From Candidatus Woesearchaeota archaeon (GTDB lineage Archaea > Nanobdellota > Nanobdellia > Nanobdellales > CAZNIQ01): a DNA stretch of 6,951 bases. Each line of letters starts with the position of its first letter. Within the stretch, counting starts at the first letter, position 1. The DNA lies in the NCBI GenBank assembly GCA_964573185.1, contig CAZNIQ010000001.1:7861-14811 (forward strand). Reading direction: 5' to 3'. The notes under the pieces are model-generated. The model searched no databases. It was not told where the DNA came from and saw only the letters and a program-made list of their open reading frames with translations. Below, piece after piece: positions 691 to 6,951 of the stretch. A program made the translations under genes and the position numbers.

Positions 691-1490
691 AAGAATATTT
701 GCGATTTATAATTCCTTTAATTATAGCATTTATAATTTTAGCACCCTTTTTTGCTAACATAATAAAAGTAATAAAAAAAGCTGAAAATAATTATGAACAA
801 ACAGAAAATGCTACTATTAATATCATAGAAAATAAAAGCTTTGATATCTGGCAAGGAAAACCGAAAATTTGGTATTGTGATAGAGTTTTAATAATTACGA
901 AAAAGGATTATAGACCTCCGGAAAATGTTTTAGAAGAATTCTTTAATCCAAACGGAAATTTATCAAAATTAGGCGAAAAAATTAATCCGATACCAGTAGA
1001 ATATTCTTGCAGACCTGATGTTAGTAGATGTTTTTATGGAGGAAAAGTTTGCTTTAAGCATGCTGTTAAAGGTGATGGTTATATAATTGAGTGGGGAATG
1101 TATTTCTGTCATAATGGAACAGAAATAGAAATGGAATGTAAAGAACCAAAATATTGTTTAATTTACTTTACTGGAATAGGATGTCCACACTGTGCCTTAA
1201 CAGATCCATTCTTATTTTATGGAATTTTAGAGTGGAACGGTAAAAAATATGTTTTTAAAGAAAAAGAAAACACTATTGTAGTTGAATATGAAATTTATAA
1301 GGAAGGAAAATATAATGCAAAAGTTTTTGATAAATATTTAGAAATCTTCTTTAAGCCTGAAGAAAGATGGTGGTATGCCGGAGTACCACATATTTTCATA
1401 AATAAAAACAAGGTTATTGTTGGAGACATACCGATTTTAGAAAAATTAAATAAAGAAATTAGATTTTCTACTTGTTCATTTATTAAATAA
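687..1490 (+). CDS. Membrane-anchored, cysteine-rich thioredoxin-fold protein with a CPHC (CxxC) active-site motif
   Basis: There is an N-terminal hydrophobic anchor (FIIPLIIAFIILAPFFANII). LIYFTGIGCPHCALTDP (CPHC at nt 1182-1193) has the beta-strand, CxxC, helix pattern of thioredoxin/DsbA-like oxidoreductases. Eight further Cys precede it. The ATGA start/stop overlap with the upstream CcdA-like gene (687-690) suggests translational coupling. Confidence 0.65.
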   Translation: MKEYLRFIIPLIIAFIILAPFFANIIKVIKKAENNYEQTENATINIIENKSFDIWQGKPKIWYCDRVLIITKKDYRPPENVLEEFFNPNGNLSKLGEKINPIPVEYSCRPDVSRCFYGGKVCFKHAVKGDGYIIEWGMYFCHNGTEIEMECKEPKYCLIYFTGIGCPHCALTDPFLFYGILEWNGKKYVFKEKENTIVVEYEIYKEGKYNAKVFDKYLEIFFKPEERWWYAGVPHIFINKNKVIVGDIPILEKLNKEIRFSTCSFIK

Positions 1491-2354
1491 AGCAATTGTT
1501 TCAATTATTAATTTTGCAGCAAAGTTCTCACAGAATTCCTGAGGATATAGCTCAACAACGTCAAAGGCTATCAAATCCACAAAATCTTTTATTTCTTTTA
1601 TGATTTTAAAATAGTGGAAAGGTCTTATTCCAAAAGGTTCTAGCCAATGTCCACAGCCGGTATCAAAAACATCTAGATCTATTGAAATATAAACTTTTTT
1701 CTCTTTAATTTTTTCTCTTATTTTTTCAATAACATTATTTATATTATCCCAAATTTCATAAGGTGTAAAATATAGTATTTTATTTTCTTCTAAGAATTCT
1801 TTTTCTCTGAAAGACCAGTTTGAGATTCCAATGAAGATTACATTTTCTGGTTCAATTATTCTTTCCTTTATTAAATAATACATAAAGCTTTGATAATTTA
1901 CATAAGGGTCTGGCTCACAATCCGGGTGGGCATCGAAATATAATAAAGCAAAATCATGGTTTTCTTTCATTAATTTCAAAATCGGATACGTTATCGAATG
2001 GTCTCCACCAAGGAATACGTACTTCTTATCTTTTCTATAAATTTTCTTTATCTCTTGATAAATTCTTTCATATAATTCTTCTAAATTTTTAATATCTTCC
2101 AATTCCAAATCACCATAATCAAAAATTTCTTCATAATTAACTTTTCCAAATATGGGGTCAAAAATTCTATAGGAAGCATCTCTAATAGCTTCCGGACCTT
2201 CTAAATAATTTTTAACTTTAGATAAGCTTCCTAATTCAGAAGGTATCCCAACTATAATCCATTTGGCTTTTTCAAAGGATTCTGCTTGGGCGTGTGCGAA
2301 CATTAGATATCTAGGGCTTGCATATATAAACATTATATCTTGGATTTTCCCCAA
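1476..2354 (-). CDS. Ureohydrolase family protein (agmatinase/arginase-like)
   Basis: The family signature motifs occur in the correct order: FLGGDHSITYP, YFDAHPD and SIDLDVFD (Mn-ligand His/Asp clusters). The start is uncertain. The annotated ATG at 2354 overlaps the upstream gene by 44 nt, and in-frame ATGs at 2333 and 2303 are alternatives. The 3' end overlaps the convergent gene by 15 nt. Confidence 0.85.
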   Translation of the reverse strand: MGKIQDIMFIYASPRYLMFAHAQAESFEKAKWIIVGIPSELGSLSKVKNYLEGPEAIRDASYRIFDPIFGKVNYEEIFDYGDLELEDIKNLEELYERIYQEIKKIYRKDKKYVFLGGDHSITYPILKLMKENHDFALLYFDAHPDCEPDPYVNYQSFMYYLIKERIIEPENVIFIGISNWSFREKEFLEENKILYFTPYEIWDNINNVIEKIREKIKEKKVYISIDLDVFDTGCGHWLEPFGIRPFHYFKIIKEIKDFVDLIAFDVVELYPQEFCENFAAKLIIETIALFNK

Positions 2355-2898
2355 TTAGAAATACTTCTTTAAAAGTGGTTTTTAACTTTCTGTAATATAA
2401 TGCCTTAAATTTCTTTGGAACAACTATCTGAAAAATACCATTCTTCTTTAAATGTTCTCTAGCTCCCTCTATAAACTTAAAAACAATATCTTTTCCAGCA
2501 GAGTATGGTGGATTTGTTATTATTGTATCAAACTTTTTATCTTTTACAGGTTCATAAACATCTCCTTGTAATACTATGCAATCAACATTATTTAATTTAC
2601 AGTTTAATTTTGCCAATTCAACAGCTTTTGGATTTATATCTACCATATATACTTTGCAGGAAGGACATAATTTCTTAACAACAATTCCAATAACACCATA
2701 ACCACATCCCAAATCCAATACCTCCCAATTATCTAAAATTAACATGCTCTCAATAAGAAGCCTTGTTCCCTCATCTATTTTATCTTTTGAAAAGACTTCT
2801 GATGAAGTATAAAGCTTTATTTTTACTCCTCTTACAATATCTTCTATTAATTTTAATTCTAATGGTTTCTCAGGTTTATTTGTGAAATAATGAGTCAT
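2311..2898 (-). CDS. Class I SAM-dependent methyltransferase, RsmC/MJ0882-like small-domain family (NPPY type)
   Basis: SAM motif I is VLDLGCGYGVIG and catalytic motif IV is IITNPPY. The length (195 aa) and the N-terminal segment (VRGVKIKLYTSSEVFSKDKIDEGTRLL) resemble the archaeal MJ0882 / bacterial 16S rRNA m2G methyltransferase family as I recall it. It overlaps the upstream gene by 23 nt. Confidence 0.85.
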   Translation of the reverse strand: MTHYFTNKPEKPLELKLIEDIVRGVKIKLYTSSEVFSKDKIDEGTRLLIESMLILDNWEVLDLGCGYGVIGIVVKKLCPSCKVYMVDINPKAVELAKLNCKLNNVDCIVLQGDVYEPVKDKKFDTIITNPPYSAGKDIVFKFIEGAREHLKKNGIFQIVVPKKFKALYYRKLKTTFKEVFLIGENPRYNVYICKP

Positions 2899-3835: not shown

Positions 3836-3843
3836 AATATAAA
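3836..3843 (-). promoter_or_regulatory. TATA-like box (TTTATATT on the minus strand) for the 2876..3814 gene
   Basis: The minus strand reads CTGA-TTTTATATTTATTTGTTCCTTTAAGAAAAA-ATG. The box centre is about 26 nt upstream of the ATG at 3814, which is typical archaeal spacing for a leaderless mRNA. Confidence 0.5.
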
Positions 3844-3844
3844 A

Positions 3845-3894
3845 TCAGCGAAGCAGAGACGTCATCACCCTGCAGCTGTCCTCGGCTTCATCAC
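3845..3894 (-). ncRNA. Box C/D sRNA (2'-O-methylation guide)
   Basis: The minus strand reads GTGATGA (C, 3894-3888), AGCCGAGGACAG (12 nt), CTGC (degenerate D', 3875-3872), AGG, GTGATGA (C', 3868-3862), CGTCTCTGCTTCG (13 nt), CTGA (D, 3848-3845). It is a GC-rich island in an AT-rich intergenic region. Confidence 0.7.
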
Positions 3895-3898
3895 CATT

Positions 3899-3928: not shown

Positions 3929-5719
3929 ATGGAAAGAATCGCTATATTCAATTGGCAATGCCCAAATTGTGGTGGTTCCATTTCTAATGATCGTTTAGAA
4001 ATCTATGCTCCTTGTGAAAAATGTTTGGATGTTCCCATTGAAAAATTAAGGGAATTATTTAATAAATTACCTAGAGAAGAATATCTTAAAACAATTGTAA
4101 AACTTTTAGAGGAAAGAGGAAAGTTAAAAGATTATAAAAAATTATATGAATTGGAATTAAAGGTAAAGGAATTTGAGGAATTCTTTAAAAAAGCTGTCGG
4201 GTCTAAACCCTGGTCTGCTCAAAGAACCTGGTTTATAAGAGTCTTAAAAAAAGAATCCTTTTCTATAACAGCTCCAACAGGAATGGGAAAAACCACTTGG
4301 GGTTCGGTAATGGCTATATACTTAGCTCATAAGGAAGGAAAGAAATGCTATATTGTTTTACCTACAAGGATTTTGGTAAAACAGGTTTATGAAAGAATAC
4401 AGAAATTCCTAGAGAATTTAGGGATTCTAGATATAGAGGTTCTAGCTTATTTAAAAACTTCTCAAAAGTTAAAGAAGCAAATTCAGGAAGGAAAATTTGA
4501 TATTTTAATTACTTCTAACCAATTTTTAGCAAGGAATTTTGAAATCCTAAAAGACAAACATTTTGGTTTTGTATTTGTAGATGATGTTGATGCTTTACTA
4601 AAAGCTTCTAAAAATATTGACAGAACTTTACAATTAATTGGTTTCAAAGAAGAGCATATTAACTTGGCTTGGGAAATTATTAAATTGAAATTACAAATAG
4701 CTAAAACAAAAGATCAAAAGAAAATTGAAGAACTTGCTAACAAGATTAAAGAACTAAAAGATAAGTTAGAAGAAGAGAAAAAGAAGTTAGATTTAGGTGT
4801 TTTAGTTTTATCCTCCGCTACAGGAAAAGCTAGGGGATTGAGAGTTAGATTATACAGAGAACTATTGAATTTTGAGATTGGAGCTTCGAAGGTTTCTATA
4901 AGAAATATAATTGATGTTTATAAATATCCTGAAAAAGATATAAAAGAAGAAGTTTTGGAATTAGTCAAAAAGCTTGAGGATGGTATTTTGATATTTGTAA
5001 CTACAGATCAAGGAAAGGATTTTGCAGTAGAACTTGCGGAATATCTTAAAAATCATGGAATAAAAGCGGAAGCTGCGATCGCAGGGAAAACTGATGTTAT
5101 AGAGAAATTTGCAAAGGAAGAATTAAATGTTCTCGTTGGAGTAGCCCATTACTACGGTACTATAGTTAGAGGATTAGATCTTCCACATAGGGTAAAATAT
5201 GCTATATTCACTGGAGTTCCAAGATTTAGATTTAGTGCTAAGGTTGAAGAAACGGATCCTAGAAGAATATTGCTATTATTAAGAACGTTATTAGATTTCT
5301 TACCTGAAGAATATAAGGAAGAAGCTGAAAAAGTATTTAGAAAACTTGCAGATAATCTCAAAAAAACAAGTCCCGCAGCTATTACAGAAGTTAAAAAAGC
5401 TATTGAGGAAAATAGGAAATTAGAAGGTTTTCTAGGATATTTACAGGAATTAACGTTAAGAGCTAAGGAAATTTGTAAAAAAGCGTTATCTGATGAAAGA
5501 GTGATAAAGAAAATAGAGGAATATCCATATTTAGCTTTAGAAAGAAAAGACGATACTTTATATATCTTAATTCCTGATGTAAAAACTTATATACAGGCTT
5601 CTGGAAGAACCTCAAGATTATATGCAGGAGGCATTACAAAAGGTTTGTCAATAGTTTTGGTAGATAACGAAAAATTGTTAAAAGGCTTGATGCAAGCTCT
5701 AAAGTGGATAGAGTATTAA
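3929..5719 (+). CDS. rgy: Reverse gyrase, N-terminal zinc-finger plus helicase-like half only (split reverse gyrase)
   Basis: There is an N-terminal zinc ribbon CPNC-x14-CEKC. The SF2 helicase motifs are present: APTGMGKTT (nt 4271-4297), DDVD (4580-4591), SSATG, VRGLDLP and QASGRTSR. The ORF ends at aa 596 (...LKWIEY*). No topoisomerase IA domain follows, and the next gene is convergent and overlaps the stop. Confidence 0.9.
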   Translation: MERIAIFNWQCPNCGGSISNDRLEIYAPCEKCLDVPIEKLRELFNKLPREEYLKTIVKLLEERGKLKDYKKLYELELKVKEFEEFFKKAVGSKPWSAQRTWFIRVLKKESFSITAPTGMGKTTWGSVMAIYLAHKEGKKCYIVLPTRILVKQVYERIQKFLENLGILDIEVLAYLKTSQKLKKQIQEGKFDILITSNQFLARNFEILKDKHFGFVFVDDVDALLKASKNIDRTLQLIGFKEEHINLAWEIIKLKLQIAKTKDQKKIEELANKIKELKDKLEEEKKKLDLGVLVLSSATGKARGLRVRLYRELLNFEIGASKVSIRNIIDVYKYPEKDIKEEVLELVKKLEDGILIFVTTDQGKDFAVELAEYLKNHGIKAEAAIAGKTDVIEKFAKEELNVLVGVAHYYGTIVRGLDLPHRVKYAIFTGVPRFRFSAKVEETDPRRILLLLRTLLDFLPEEYKEEAEKVFRKLADNLKKTSPAAITEVKKAIEENRKLEGFLGYLQELTLRAKEICKKALSDERVIKKIEEYPYLALERKDDTLYILIPDVKTYIQASGRTSRLYAGGITKGLSIVLVDNEKLLKGLMQALKWIEY

Positions 5720-6186
5720 AGTTTTTCTAAATAAAAGATTGCATAAAAATTTCTCCCTTTTCTTTTAATAAAAACATCTATAACTGCAAAATACTTAATA
5801 ATTTCGTTAACAAAATCTTGAGGATATATTCTTAATTTAGATTTCATTTCAGGAAATCCGAAGAGTTCGAATTCTATATAAGCTTTTCCACCCGGCTTTA
5901 AAACGTTGTATAAAGCGTTTAAGAACTGCTTATAGTTTTTATCTAAATTTTCAACATATACTAAATCCACTTTGTTTATAAAATTCTTGTACATATCTAG
6001 AAAAGATCCTTTAACATATACTTTATTTCCAAAAGTTCCAGCTTTTTTATCATTTATAAAATAGAATTTCTTATCAGTATATTTATTTGCAAACCTTTCT
6101 AATTTAAAACCATATATATCTAAAATTATTTTTGCTTCAGAGAGGTCATGAGTCATCATTTTCTCAGCTAAGGGTGAGTTCCTCAT
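5716..6186 (-). CDS. Small class I methyltransferase-fold-like protein with an atypical motif I (function uncertain)
   Basis: The order of motifs resembles a Rossmann methyltransferase: IILDIYGFK (degenerate GxGxG), YFIND (acidic end of beta2), VDLVYVENL and NVLKPGGKAYI. It shares a TTAA stop/stop overlap with the convergent reverse gyrase gene (5716-5719). Its first 16 codons coincide with a C/D-box-like module, so the real start could be ATG 6186, 6159 or 6156. Confidence 0.45.
   Translation of the reverse strand: MRNSPLAEKMMTHDLSEAKIILDIYGFKLERFANKYTDKKFYFINDKKAGTFGNKVYVKGSFLDMYKNFINKVDLVYVENLDKNYKQFLNALYNVLKPGGKAYIEFELFGFPEMKSKLRIYPQDFVNEIIKYFAVIDVFIKRKGRNFYAIFYLEKL
6137..6186 (-). ncRNA. 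Box C/D sRNA-like module overlapping the 5' end of CDS 5716..6186
   Basis: The minus strand reads ATGAGGA (C-like with one mismatch, 6186-6180), ACTCACCCTTAG (12 nt), CTGA (D', 6167-6164), GAAA, ATGATGA (C', 6159-6153), CTCATGACCTCT (12 nt), CTGA (D, 6140-6137). Both spacers are exactly 12 nt. The U5-to-G change in the C box would replace the U-U pair with a G-U pair. Confidence 0.5.
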
Positions 6187-6216
6187 TTAAAATTAAGATT
6201 AGTTTATAGATTTTTA
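6186..6216. promoter_or_regulatory. AT-rich spacer with putative back-to-back TATA-like elements
   Basis: On the plus strand, TTTAAAAT (6186-6193) is centred about 26 nt before the C box at 6217. On the minus strand, TTAAAAAT (6216-6209) is centred about 26 nt before position 6186, which is the ATG and C-like box. A further TTTATAGA/TCTATAAA element lies at 6203-6210. Confidence 0.4.
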
Positions 6217-6264
6217 ATGATGAGGCGTTTCCACTCTGATTATGATGATAGGTCCCATTGCTGA
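6217..6264 (+). ncRNA. Box C/D sRNA (canonical double-guide architecture)
   Basis: The plus strand reads ATGATGA (C, 6217-6223), GGCGTTTCCACT (12 nt), CTGA (D', 6236-6239), TT, ATGATGA (C', 6242-6248), TAGGTCCCATTG (12 nt), CTGA (D, 6261-6264). All four boxes match the consensus and both spacers are 12 nt. It lies in an intergenic GC-rich island. Confidence 0.85.
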
Positions 6265-6312
6265 TCAGCCCCGTGACGCTTCATCATTTTCAGCAGTACA
6301 GATCCTCATCAC
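6265..6312 (-). ncRNA. Box C/D sRNA embedded in the 3' end of CDS 6265..>6951
   Basis: The minus strand reads GTGATGA (C, 6312-6306), GGATCTGTACTG (12 nt), CTGA (D', 6293-6290), AA, ATGATGA (C', 6287-6281), AGCGTCACGGGG (12 nt), CTGA (D, 6268-6265). All boxes match the consensus and both spacers are 12 nt. Confidence 0.75.
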
Positions 6313-6951
6313 TTCTTTTAATGTATAAATGTTCTTTTTAAAATCACAAGACCTTAAATATTCAAAACCTGTAATATCTATAAATGCAATTTTTCCTTTT
6401 ATTTCTCTTAAAATGATTAAAAGCTCATTCAAATCTAAAAGAAACGCATAATTATTATATCTGTTGCAAACAAAATCTCTCTTAAGTATATCCAAATCTA
6501 TAGACACATATAGTTCGTTTGGAAGTTCTTTTAAAAAATTAATAACGTTTCCCCAATTACTTCTATCTTTTCTTATCAAAATATATTTATCAAAAGAATT
6601 CGTTTCAGGTTTAAGAAAGCCAACATAGAACATTTCTTTTACATTTGCCAATTTTTTAATAAATCTTGCAAAGCTTCCAGTGTTTATCCCTTTCATTAAA
6701 GAGTAATCATCTGGATGTTGATCTATATGTAAATAGTACTTCGGTTTTATTTTGATTAAAATAGCTAGAGTAATGAAATGTTTTTTATCTGAACCATAAA
6801 TGTAAAAATTATCTTCAGGTATTATTTTTGATATTTCGAGAATTTCATTTTCTGTATAATAAGGTTTGCTTGGAAGCTTAAGATCTACAATCTTATCAAA
6901 GTTAAAGTACTTCTTTAATTCCTCCGTTGCTTTATCTATATTGATTAACGC
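6265..6951 (-). CDS. Divergent ureohydrolase-fold paralog (5' partial, continues off the right edge)
   Basis: My translation of the minus strand shows the frame of ORF 6265..6696 stays open from 6696 up to nt 6951 (ALINIDKATEELKKYFNFDKIVDL...FYIYGSDKKHFITLAIL...YYLHIDQHPDDYSL-MKGINTG...). The motifs align with the 1476..2354 protein: GSDKKHFIT versus GGDHSIT, HIDQHPD versus FDAHPD, VSIDLDILKRD versus ISIDLDVFD, and IAFIDITGFEY versus IAFDVVELYP. Confidence 0.6.
   Translation of the reverse strand, partial: ALINIDKATEELKKYFNFDKIVDLKLPSKPYYTENEILEISKIIPEDNFYIYGSDKKHFITLAILIKIKPKYYLHIDQHPDDYSLMKGINTGSFARFIKKLANVKEMFYVGFLKPETNSFDKYILIRKDRSNWGNVINFLKELPNELYVSIDLDILKRDFVCNRYNNYAFLLDLNELLIILREIKGKIAFIDITGFEYLRSCDFKKNIYTLKEVMRICTAENDEASRG

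Follow-up and report, generated by a model that had tools for sequence, protein, structure and literature searches.

A probable box C/D guide RNA overlapping the start of a methyltransferase-like gene in an uncultured, probably Nanoarchaeum-like archaeon

Within 6,951 nucleotides of contig CAZNIQ010000001.1 from a Candidatus Woesearchaeota archaeon (positions 7,861 to 14,811 of the forward strand; this whole stretch is hereafter the window), the minus strand from 6186 to 6137 most likely harbours a genuine box C/D guide RNA, which overlaps the start of a real gene, an open reading frame (ORF) of predicted methyltransferase-like fold. We computed the architecture of this candidate, its excess over chance, the constraint on its nucleotides, the homology of its guides and the selection acting on the ORF. 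Composition, conservation in a relative, resemblance to a guide family of the sR48 type, a natural variant of the C box and plausible targets in 23S rRNA together argue for a real guide RNA. If so, one stretch of DNA is under selection both as guide RNA and as protein-coding sequence, with all possible start codons of the protein located within a kink-turn (K-turn) or a kink-loop (K-loop).

Read from 6186 to 6137, the minus strand spells ATGAGGA, ACTCACCCTTAG, CTGA, GAAA, ATGATGA, CTCATGACCTCT and CTGA, such that a C box near the 5' end, a D box at the 3' end, an internal D'/C' pair joined by a short linker, and two spacers of exactly 12 nt are all present, as in box C/D small RNAs (sRNAs; Table 1). 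The initial annotation had described this C-12-D'-linker-C'-12-D layout, and both our own reading and a pattern scan bear it out. The scan applied C/D grammar to the entire 6951-base window, finding three modules under strict rules (12-nt spacers and at most one box mismatch) and four under loose ones. When the window was shuffled 1000 times with dinucleotides preserved, a C/D architecture never arose, even with the loose rules, which, set against the four modules observed, excludes chance. The module also stands out compositionally: its GC content is 44%, versus 23% in the remaining ORF, and that of third codon positions 0.53 versus 0.18. Its 17 codons rank in the lowest 0.5% for codon typicality among 2020 seventeen-codon windows, and include the rare CTC (1% of Leu), CCC (10%) and GAC (12%). 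When the peptide was held fixed and recoded synonymously according to genome codon usage, the boxes survived in only 3% of recodings.

An exhaustive HMMER search returned a single relative of the ORF, P0002, encoded on contigs L004 (NCBI GCA_054017035.1) and L005, the latter a second contig of the relative, and the comparison that follows is one of two species, the window versus L004. In both contigs the module reads ATGATGA ACTCACCCTTAG CTGA AAGG ATGATGA TTCATGACCTCT CTGA, with a canonical C box. Identity over the whole 50-nt module is 45/50, and is concentrated in the boxes and guides (44/46), leaving the D'/C' linker (1/4) as the sole freely varying part. The guides themselves are identical at 12/12 (D') and 11/12 (D) positions, together 23/24; the only substitution, of C by U at the first position of the D guide, leaves the target G paired. 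By comparison, the upstream flank is unalignable (41% identical) and the gene outside the module is 68-72% identical, while the synonymous rate (dS) is 0.26 in the module versus approximately 0.98 in codons 35-155. A comparison of orthologous loci had been suggested in the initial annotation, and it reveals boxes and 12-nt spacing kept in L004 beyond what coding requires. Inspection by eye of the window and L004 revealed no conserved terminal stem around the C and D boxes, and secondary-structure folding of the modules was uninformative (z between -1.6 and +1.1), as is expected of K-turn RNAs.

These results bear on the caveat, also raised in the initial annotation, that the module might be a coincidence, with box-like words arising from an ordinary N-terminus that has no RNA function. 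Words such as ATG and TGA abound in AT-rich coding DNA, and one C-box position is off consensus; yet the absence of the architecture from all shuffles, the rarity with which recoding retains the boxes, the rare codons and jump in GC, the conservation of boxes and guides but not of the linker, and the homology to known sRNA guides described below, leave this explanation effectively refuted.

The C box departs from the canonical sequence at its fifth position (U to G), which had been taken for a mismatch. That description does not hold. The K-turn of the U4 small nuclear RNA reads AAUGAGG, and the C box of the sR48 family is itself non-canonical (AUGUGGA). AUGAGGA or UGAGGA boxes occur in many RNA-seq-detected sRNAs of M. 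kandleri and Ignicoccus, among them IHOsR160 and, with AUGAGGA itself, MKAsR38, MKAsR40, IHOsR157 and IHOsR473 (Dennis et al. 2015 supplements, PMC4644070). On the evidence of such sequences, AUGAGGA is a normal natural C-box variant.

The same box recurs in the guide family that the candidate most resembles. Rfam sR48 (RF01132) scores the candidate at 24.7 bits (6135-6193 on the minus strand), its L004 counterpart at 25.5 and a copy on another contig, L006, at 43.0, relative to a gathering score of 40; at that cut-off the candidate falls outside the family, which only its C box and D' guide half resemble. The alignment extends into the D' guide (uCCCACCCUUGG versus ACUCACCCUUAG), where 9/12 positions are identical to the sR48 consensus. 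A metagenome scan combining guide and box grammar returned the same organism (L007) together with the GC-richer L006, where the above-threshold copy, ATGAGGA TCCACCCTTAG CTGA TGTG ATGATGA AGCCTCGTGGTT CTGA, shares both the AUGAGGA box and the CCACCCUUAG guide of the candidate. It lies directly after a dehydrogenase stop codon, and no ORF runs out of it. Just before it on L006 (2771-2793, plus strand) is an extra half-module, ATGAGGA GCTGGATCCGAC CTGA, within which the 2-hydroxyacid dehydrogenase ORF before it has its stop codon. A CACCCUU core is further shared between the candidate's D' guide and guides of IHOsR160 (...GTGAGGA ACCCACCCTTGG CTGA) and MKAsR38 (...CCCACCCTTGA CCGA), both mapped to 23S CCAAGGGUGGGG (Dennis et al. 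2015 supplements, PMC4644070). In sR48, IHOsR160, MKAsR38 and the candidate alike, a UGAGGA-type box precedes a NCCACCCUUNG guide and then CUGA, and the target, predicted in the case of the candidate, is 23S CCAAGGGUGGG, beside the A-loop. The differences are that the second guide of the candidate is unrelated to the CUCGUGG guide of sR48, and that the common guide occupies the D position in Ignicoccus and M. kandleri, whereas it is the D' guide here. By sequence, then, the D' guide appears to belong to a family recurring across archaeal phyla (Pyrococcus sR48, Ignicoccus sR160, M. kandleri sR38).

The finding that the C box is canonical in L004 and not in the window might alternatively indicate a relic, inactivated in the window by the U-to-G change and drifting into coding sequence, of which only the L004 copy works. 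We regard this as very improbable, given that AUGAGGA is the C box of the gathering-score sR48 copy in L006 and of many RNA-seq-detected sRNAs, and that the guides, at 23/24 identical to L004, are without decay.

Target sites are given in approximate E. coli numbering, with the alignment anchored on A2451 and A2602, and the target nucleotide is defined as that paired to the fifth guide position upstream of D or D'. The D' guide is predicted to pair at about 2539-2550, on the 5' strand of the A-loop helix, directing methylation to approximately G2543; this pairing comprises nine Watson-Crick (WC) pairs and one GU pair in the 23S rRNA of all seven archaea aligned, these being other archaea and not the source organism itself. 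The predicted D-guide site, at about 2567-2578 with position ~2571 as the target, is 28 nt downstream, and offers nine WC and two GU pairs with M. maripaludis GGGGAUCAUGAG, or seven WC and three GU pairs at the same column in most other archaea. Within all 16S and 23S alignments UCAUGAG is unique, and falls at the D-guide site. Both guides pair inside one 100-nt block of 23S rRNA, and dual guides with targets less than 100 nt apart are the rule among rRNA-targeting sRNAs (Lui 2018). Full matches would read CUAAGGGUGAGU (D', ~2539-2550) and AGAGGUCAUGAG (D, ~2567-2578). No rRNA or tRNA was present on any of the contigs fetched, and scanning a viral collection with both predicted target sites returned no match.

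The overlapped ORF is preceded immediately by an in-frame TAA (6189-6187) and remains open for 156 codons in DNA of 26% GC. In-frame ATG, GTG or TTG codons occur only at positions 1, 10, 11, 65, 73 and 114. As initially annotated, the called start codon is the ATG of the C box, according to both the ORF list and the calls in public assemblies, and the only nearby in-frame ATGs, codons 10 and 11, are in the C' box, the next start-type codon being 65. Ratios of nonsynonymous to synonymous substitution (dN/dS), computed against L004 after removal of a 1-nt insertion in the latter, are 0.12 in codons 18-34, rising to 0.23 in codons 35-64 and 0.36 in codons 65-155 (0.32 over codons 35-155 together). 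Judged by these sequences the ORF is a real, lineage-restricted and nearly orphan gene under purifying selection; a k-mer search of 5.8 billion proteins recovered only the ORF itself. As codons 18-34 are under strong purifying selection, and the starts upstream of them are confined to codons 1, 10 and 11, translation should begin upstream of codon 18, in the C or the C' box. The proposal that overlap between coding sequence and RNA module is obligatory is thereby upheld, and the arrangement, in which sRNA and ORF share a strand and the ORF's start codon falls within the sRNA, is that of the class of 5'-sense sRNA/ORF overlaps.

What the gene encodes is clearer at the level of fold than of family. 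No Pfam domain was detected in the ORF at E<=0.01, and no SAM (S-adenosylmethionine) methyltransferase family at its gathering score; a permissive scan gave sub-threshold matches to Methyltransf_11 (E=0.074; 14.1 bits, cut-off 21.2) and Methyltransf_25 (E=0.29), which cover only the C-terminal tail of the domain. An AlphaFold (AF2) model is confident for residues ~65-156 (pLDDT 70-83) and not for residues 1-61 (pLDDT <50), and almost all of its top 50 Foldseek matches in the PDB are SAM methyltransferases (E down to 1.7e-5, over approximately 100-115 columns). No motif I, the GxGxG part that binds SAM, was recognised in the model, whose confident part covers only residues 65-156. The model thus suggests a class-I SAM-methyltransferase-like fold for residues ~65-156, so that the initial label of a methyltransferase-like gene is retained for the fold of this part, and not for Pfam assignment or the N-terminal 61 residues. 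Codons 18-34, where AlphaFold confidence is nil, are far better conserved than the methyltransferase-like core.

In L004 (at ~1744) and also in L005, a 1-nt C insertion after GCAAA places the remainder of the gene in the +1 frame (TTG 1736..2110). This frameshift may be a recent mutation or a read-level error common to the two assemblies, or the gene may have divided into two products, as both parts show long-term purifying selection. The same selection on either side of it led us to downgrade the idea of a pseudogene downstream of an sRNA as the principal interpretation. A related possibility is that the overlap is an annotation artefact, in which a stand-alone sRNA is followed by a protein starting at Met65 (92 aa) or by a decaying ORF, with codons 1-64 untranslated. 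The sole public homolog, in L004, is called from the equivalent of Met65, its frame shifts after codon 34, the model lacks confidence for residues 1-61, and pseudogenes can form downstream of 5'-overlapping sRNAs (review PMC7994747). Nevertheless, dN/dS values of 0.12 and 0.23 in codons 18-34 and 35-64 are unlike those of untranslated sequence, 156 codons without a stop are difficult to reconcile with DNA of this composition, and the low pLDDT may only reflect an alignment row covering residues 65-156. An artefact is therefore improbable in our estimation, and we continue to favour a guide RNA that overlaps a translated gene start.

Several points weigh against that preference. The candidate's 24.7 bits are under the gathering cut-off of every Rfam family. 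Pairing is imperfect on the rRNA of other archaea, and the D guide is mismatched at the predicted methylation position (position 5). Null probabilities for pairing are modest with shuffled guides (P=0.036 for D and 0.10 for D'; P=0.007 when random AT-rich 12-mers serve as the null), which we attribute to the use of foreign rRNAs. In Pyrobaculum, 88% of the guides on which an ORF 5' end encroaches were without target (Lui 2018), such that the D guide of the candidate could be an orphan. The L004 frame that opens at the C box reaches a stop after 34 codons, and overlap with a full-length protein is consequently documented in one species only. Finally, codons for the same amino acid are unchanged at 10/10 sites in boxes and guides versus 46/69 elsewhere (one-sided Fisher P=0.025), a test that is weak because only two species are compared.

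How the RNA might be produced depends on putative promoters. The TATA-like element that the initial annotation placed about 26 nt upstream is present as TTAAAAAT, though centred at about 27 nt, and a more obvious TATA-like sequence, TCTATAAA (6210-6203), is centred only ~20 nt upstream. In N. equitans box A lies at -26/-27, and its consensus is matched by TTTAAA (Randau 2012), a word that also occurs, as a palindrome, at 6186-6191 (Table 1). A scan for sigma-70 promoters and terminators returned nothing useful, the model not being applicable to archaea. The sRNA may derive from its own promoter (TTAAAAAT) or, by read-through, from the upstream gene and a neighbouring sRNA, designated A. Assembly with L7Ae, Nop5 and fibrillarin into a ribonucleoprotein (RNP) would shield the 50-nt core during trimming of the flanks, in line with the published model for such genes (Tripp 2017, as relayed in PMC7994747), and the particle would 2'-O-methylate two positions of 23S domain V that flank the A-loop hairpin (~G2543 and ~2571), with the precise sites depending on the rRNA of the source organism itself. 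The host protein would initiate at the AUG of the C box (codon 1) or of the C' box (codons 10/11), and an mRNA without the C box could start from TTTAAA (6191-6186), ~27 nt upstream of the C'-box AUG. As the candidate starts lie within the K-turn or the K-loop, we infer that RNP assembly and translation exclude each other on any one transcript.

Regulation might instead be the main role, with L7Ae or a C/D RNP hiding the start codon of a leaderless mRNA as a K-turn translational switch. Such a switch would accord with the binding of L7Ae to mRNA K-turns and its repression of translation in Sulfolobus (Daume 2017), with the location of every candidate start codon within the C or C' box, with a TATA-like element positioned for an RNA start at the C box, and with the reduced downstream reporter expression caused by 5' overlap (Tripp 2017, as relayed in PMC7994747). 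A switch would, however, suffice with one K-turn, and has no need of two 12-nt guides, here kept at 23/24 positions; one of these guides has homologs with mapped targets in four other lineages, and on L006 the same guide RNA is free-standing, without an ORF following it. Repression would then be a by-product of sRNP assembly, and a switch as the principal function is, in our view, quite unlikely. A bolder proposal is that a leaderless transcript from the C-box AUG serves as both mRNA and functional dual-guide sRNA, its fate decided by L7Ae/Nop5/fibrillarin occupancy, and that its first 34 codons, which are strongly conserved and make up a free-standing ORF in L004, might also encode a small peptide. 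Although unlikely, such a bifunctional 5' end would couple the supply of an rRNA methylation guide to expression of a methyltransferase protein.

Table 1. Features of the window discussed in the text (positions as numbered in the window)
Feature	Position	Strand	Remarks
Complete dual-guide C/D-box sRNA core (candidate)	6137..6186	(-)	50 nt; ORF codons 1-17; read in sequence and by pattern scan
C box AUGAGGA	6180..6186	(-)	AUG is ORF codon 1; AUGAUGA in L004
D' guide ACUCACCCUUAG (DNA ACTCACCCTTAG)	6168..6179	(-)	12 nt; predicted target 23S rRNA, 5' strand of A-loop helix
D' box CUGA	6164..6167	(-)	unchanged in L004
D'/C' linker GAAA (loop of K-loop)	6160..6163	(-)	AAGG in L004, 1/4 identical
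C' box AUGAUGA	6153..6159	(-)	contains in-frame AUG codons 10 and 11; unchanged in L004
D guide CUCAUGACCUCU (DNA CTCATGACCTCT)	6141..6152	(-)	12 nt; predicted target 23S rRNA, 28 nt downstream of D' target
D box CUGA	6137..6140	(-)	unchanged in L004
156-aa ORF, near-orphan	5716..6186	(-)	from ORF list; same product called in public assemblies
Codons 18-34, best-conserved protein segment	6086..6136	(-)	L004 shares 46/51 nt and 16/17 aa; dN/dS 0.12
TATA-like TTAAAAAT, putative promoter	6210..6217	(-)	centred ~27 nt upstream of A6186
Palindromic TTTAAA, putative promoter function	6186..6191	both	~26 nt upstream of C box of sRNA B (+); ~27 nt upstream of C'-box AUG (-)
C/D sRNA A	6265..6312	(-)	GTGATGA-12-CTGA-AA-ATGATGA-12-CTGA, perfect boxes; snoPyro_CD 29.8 bits (6262-6316)
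C/D sRNA B	6217..6264	(+)	perfect boxes, 12/12 spacers; sR5 26.6 bits (6214-6265)
sR45 C/D sRNA	3843-3898	(-)	42.3 bits, above gathering score; between PGM-like ORF and reverse-gyrase half
Reverse-gyrase helicase half (zf_Rg + DEAD)	3929-5719	(+)	separate 596-aa ORF
Agmatinase	1476..2354		neighbouring gene
Genuine MTS-family methyltransferase	2311..2898		neighbouring gene

The candidate is not isolated in the window, where Rfam C/D models identify four sites, including a cluster of three adjacent modules (A, B and the candidate) that the initial annotation missed. sRNA A is embedded in the 3' end of the upstream ORF, shares the candidate's strand and is located 75 nt upstream of the candidate; the TGA stop of that ORF is part of A's D box, CTGA (6268-6265), and A's D guide matches N. 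equitans 23S ACGUGACGCC. sRNA B is antisense in the gap, divergent from the candidate and convergent with A, with which its D box abuts in a palindrome, GCTGATCAGC (6260-6269); its D guide matches 23S GAAUGGGACCUC of N. equitans and M. kandleri. The sR45-like module has a D' guide resembling NeqsR02, and the target predicted for it, CUGUCCUCGGCU, matches only N. equitans 23S. In L004 another C/D sRNA (1573-1620, plus strand; GTGATGA GCCTGTTACCAT CAGA TTT ATGAAGA TACCGCGAGGTG CTGA) is found upstream of the candidate's homolog, in tandem with it and separated from it by 21 nt. The D' guide of this sRNA matches 23S domain V (N. equitans GGGGGUAACAGC), such that neighbouring sRNA genes would target neighbouring rRNA regions, and the tandem order suggests a dicistronic precursor.

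The upstream ORF (6265-6951, minus strand; 230 aa in L001) runs off the window, and its HIDQHPD and SIDLDIL motifs recall the arginase/agmatinase family, although its 143-aa part within the window has no Pfam match; it would be a second copy of this type beside the clear agmatinase. The window is metagenome-assembled with a GC content of ~28%, and a form-III-like RuBisCO is encoded on the longer contig. The candidate's ORF and the reverse-gyrase half are convergent and overlap at their 3' ends by 4 nt (5716-5719). Split reverse gyrase is known from Nanoarchaeum equitans. The relative carries the topoisomerase half, with an intein, as a separate 1048-aa gene elsewhere (L004 3952-7098). C/D sRNAs flank the N-terminal half in the window, as reported for NEQ434. 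Scanning a genome collection with the reverse-gyrase half for syntenic relatives returned only an unrelated Flavobacterium helicase.

The overlap arrangement is already known from Nanoarchaeum, Pyrobaculum and Sulfolobus, and is not a new kind of element. The novelty implied for excision and for L7Ae occlusion falls away because both have been proposed before (Lui et al. 2018; Tripp et al. 2017, the latter as relayed in PMC7994747), and sequence data cannot distinguish between them. According to that review's account of Tripp 2017, 7% of sRNA genes in six archaea have a sense 5' ORF overlap, and a C/D module in any transcribed context gives rise to a mature sRNA. Sense 5' overlaps form 'category 1' in Pyrobaculum, for which excision versus interference by L7Ae or the RNP is discussed (Lui 2018). 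The candidate shares with this class, so far as these accounts describe it, a common strand, a start codon in the sRNA and suspected co-transcription. Start codons in Pyrobaculum are located in the C' box or D guide, whereas here the frame opens at the C-box AUG, placing the entire sRNA within the ORF; and whereas 88% of overlapped guides are targetless in the former, both guides of the candidate are conserved and have plausible 23S targets. A further precedent is the autoregulatory K-turn bound by L7Ae in the l7ae 5' untranslated region (Daume et al. 2017), likewise a K-turn-forming element situated where translation of an archaeal mRNA begins. That K-turn is single, guideless and set in a Shine-Dalgarno leader, in contrast to the full C/D and C'/D' pairs within coding sequence seen here, where L7Ae binding is a potential of the sequence.

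Another close likeness is to Nanoarchaeum equitans, with its AT-rich compact genome, 12-nt guides and lack of a terminal stem, in which most sRNAs overlap mRNAs, several of them on putative rRNA methyltransferase genes, and sRNA genes sit beside split genes, including the reverse-gyrase N-terminal half NEQ434 that has its counterpart in the window (Randau 2012). The guides of the window's other three modules likewise find their best counterparts in N. equitans 23S, which, together with the split reverse gyrase, makes a Nanoarchaeum-like source probable. The source organism nonetheless belongs to another, uncultured lineage, and no catalogued N. equitans sRNA has the candidate's guides, NeqsR10 targeting neighbouring but different positions. 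The candidate may extend a widely shared, A-loop-proximal 23S guide to an uncultured, probably Nanoarchaeum-like lineage, and would offer a test bed for the release of sense-overlapping sRNAs from mRNAs and the repression of host genes by RNP assembly. Relative to these known systems, what is less usual is that the whole sRNA is contained in the ORF and that, from their sequences, both overlapped guides appear to be functional.

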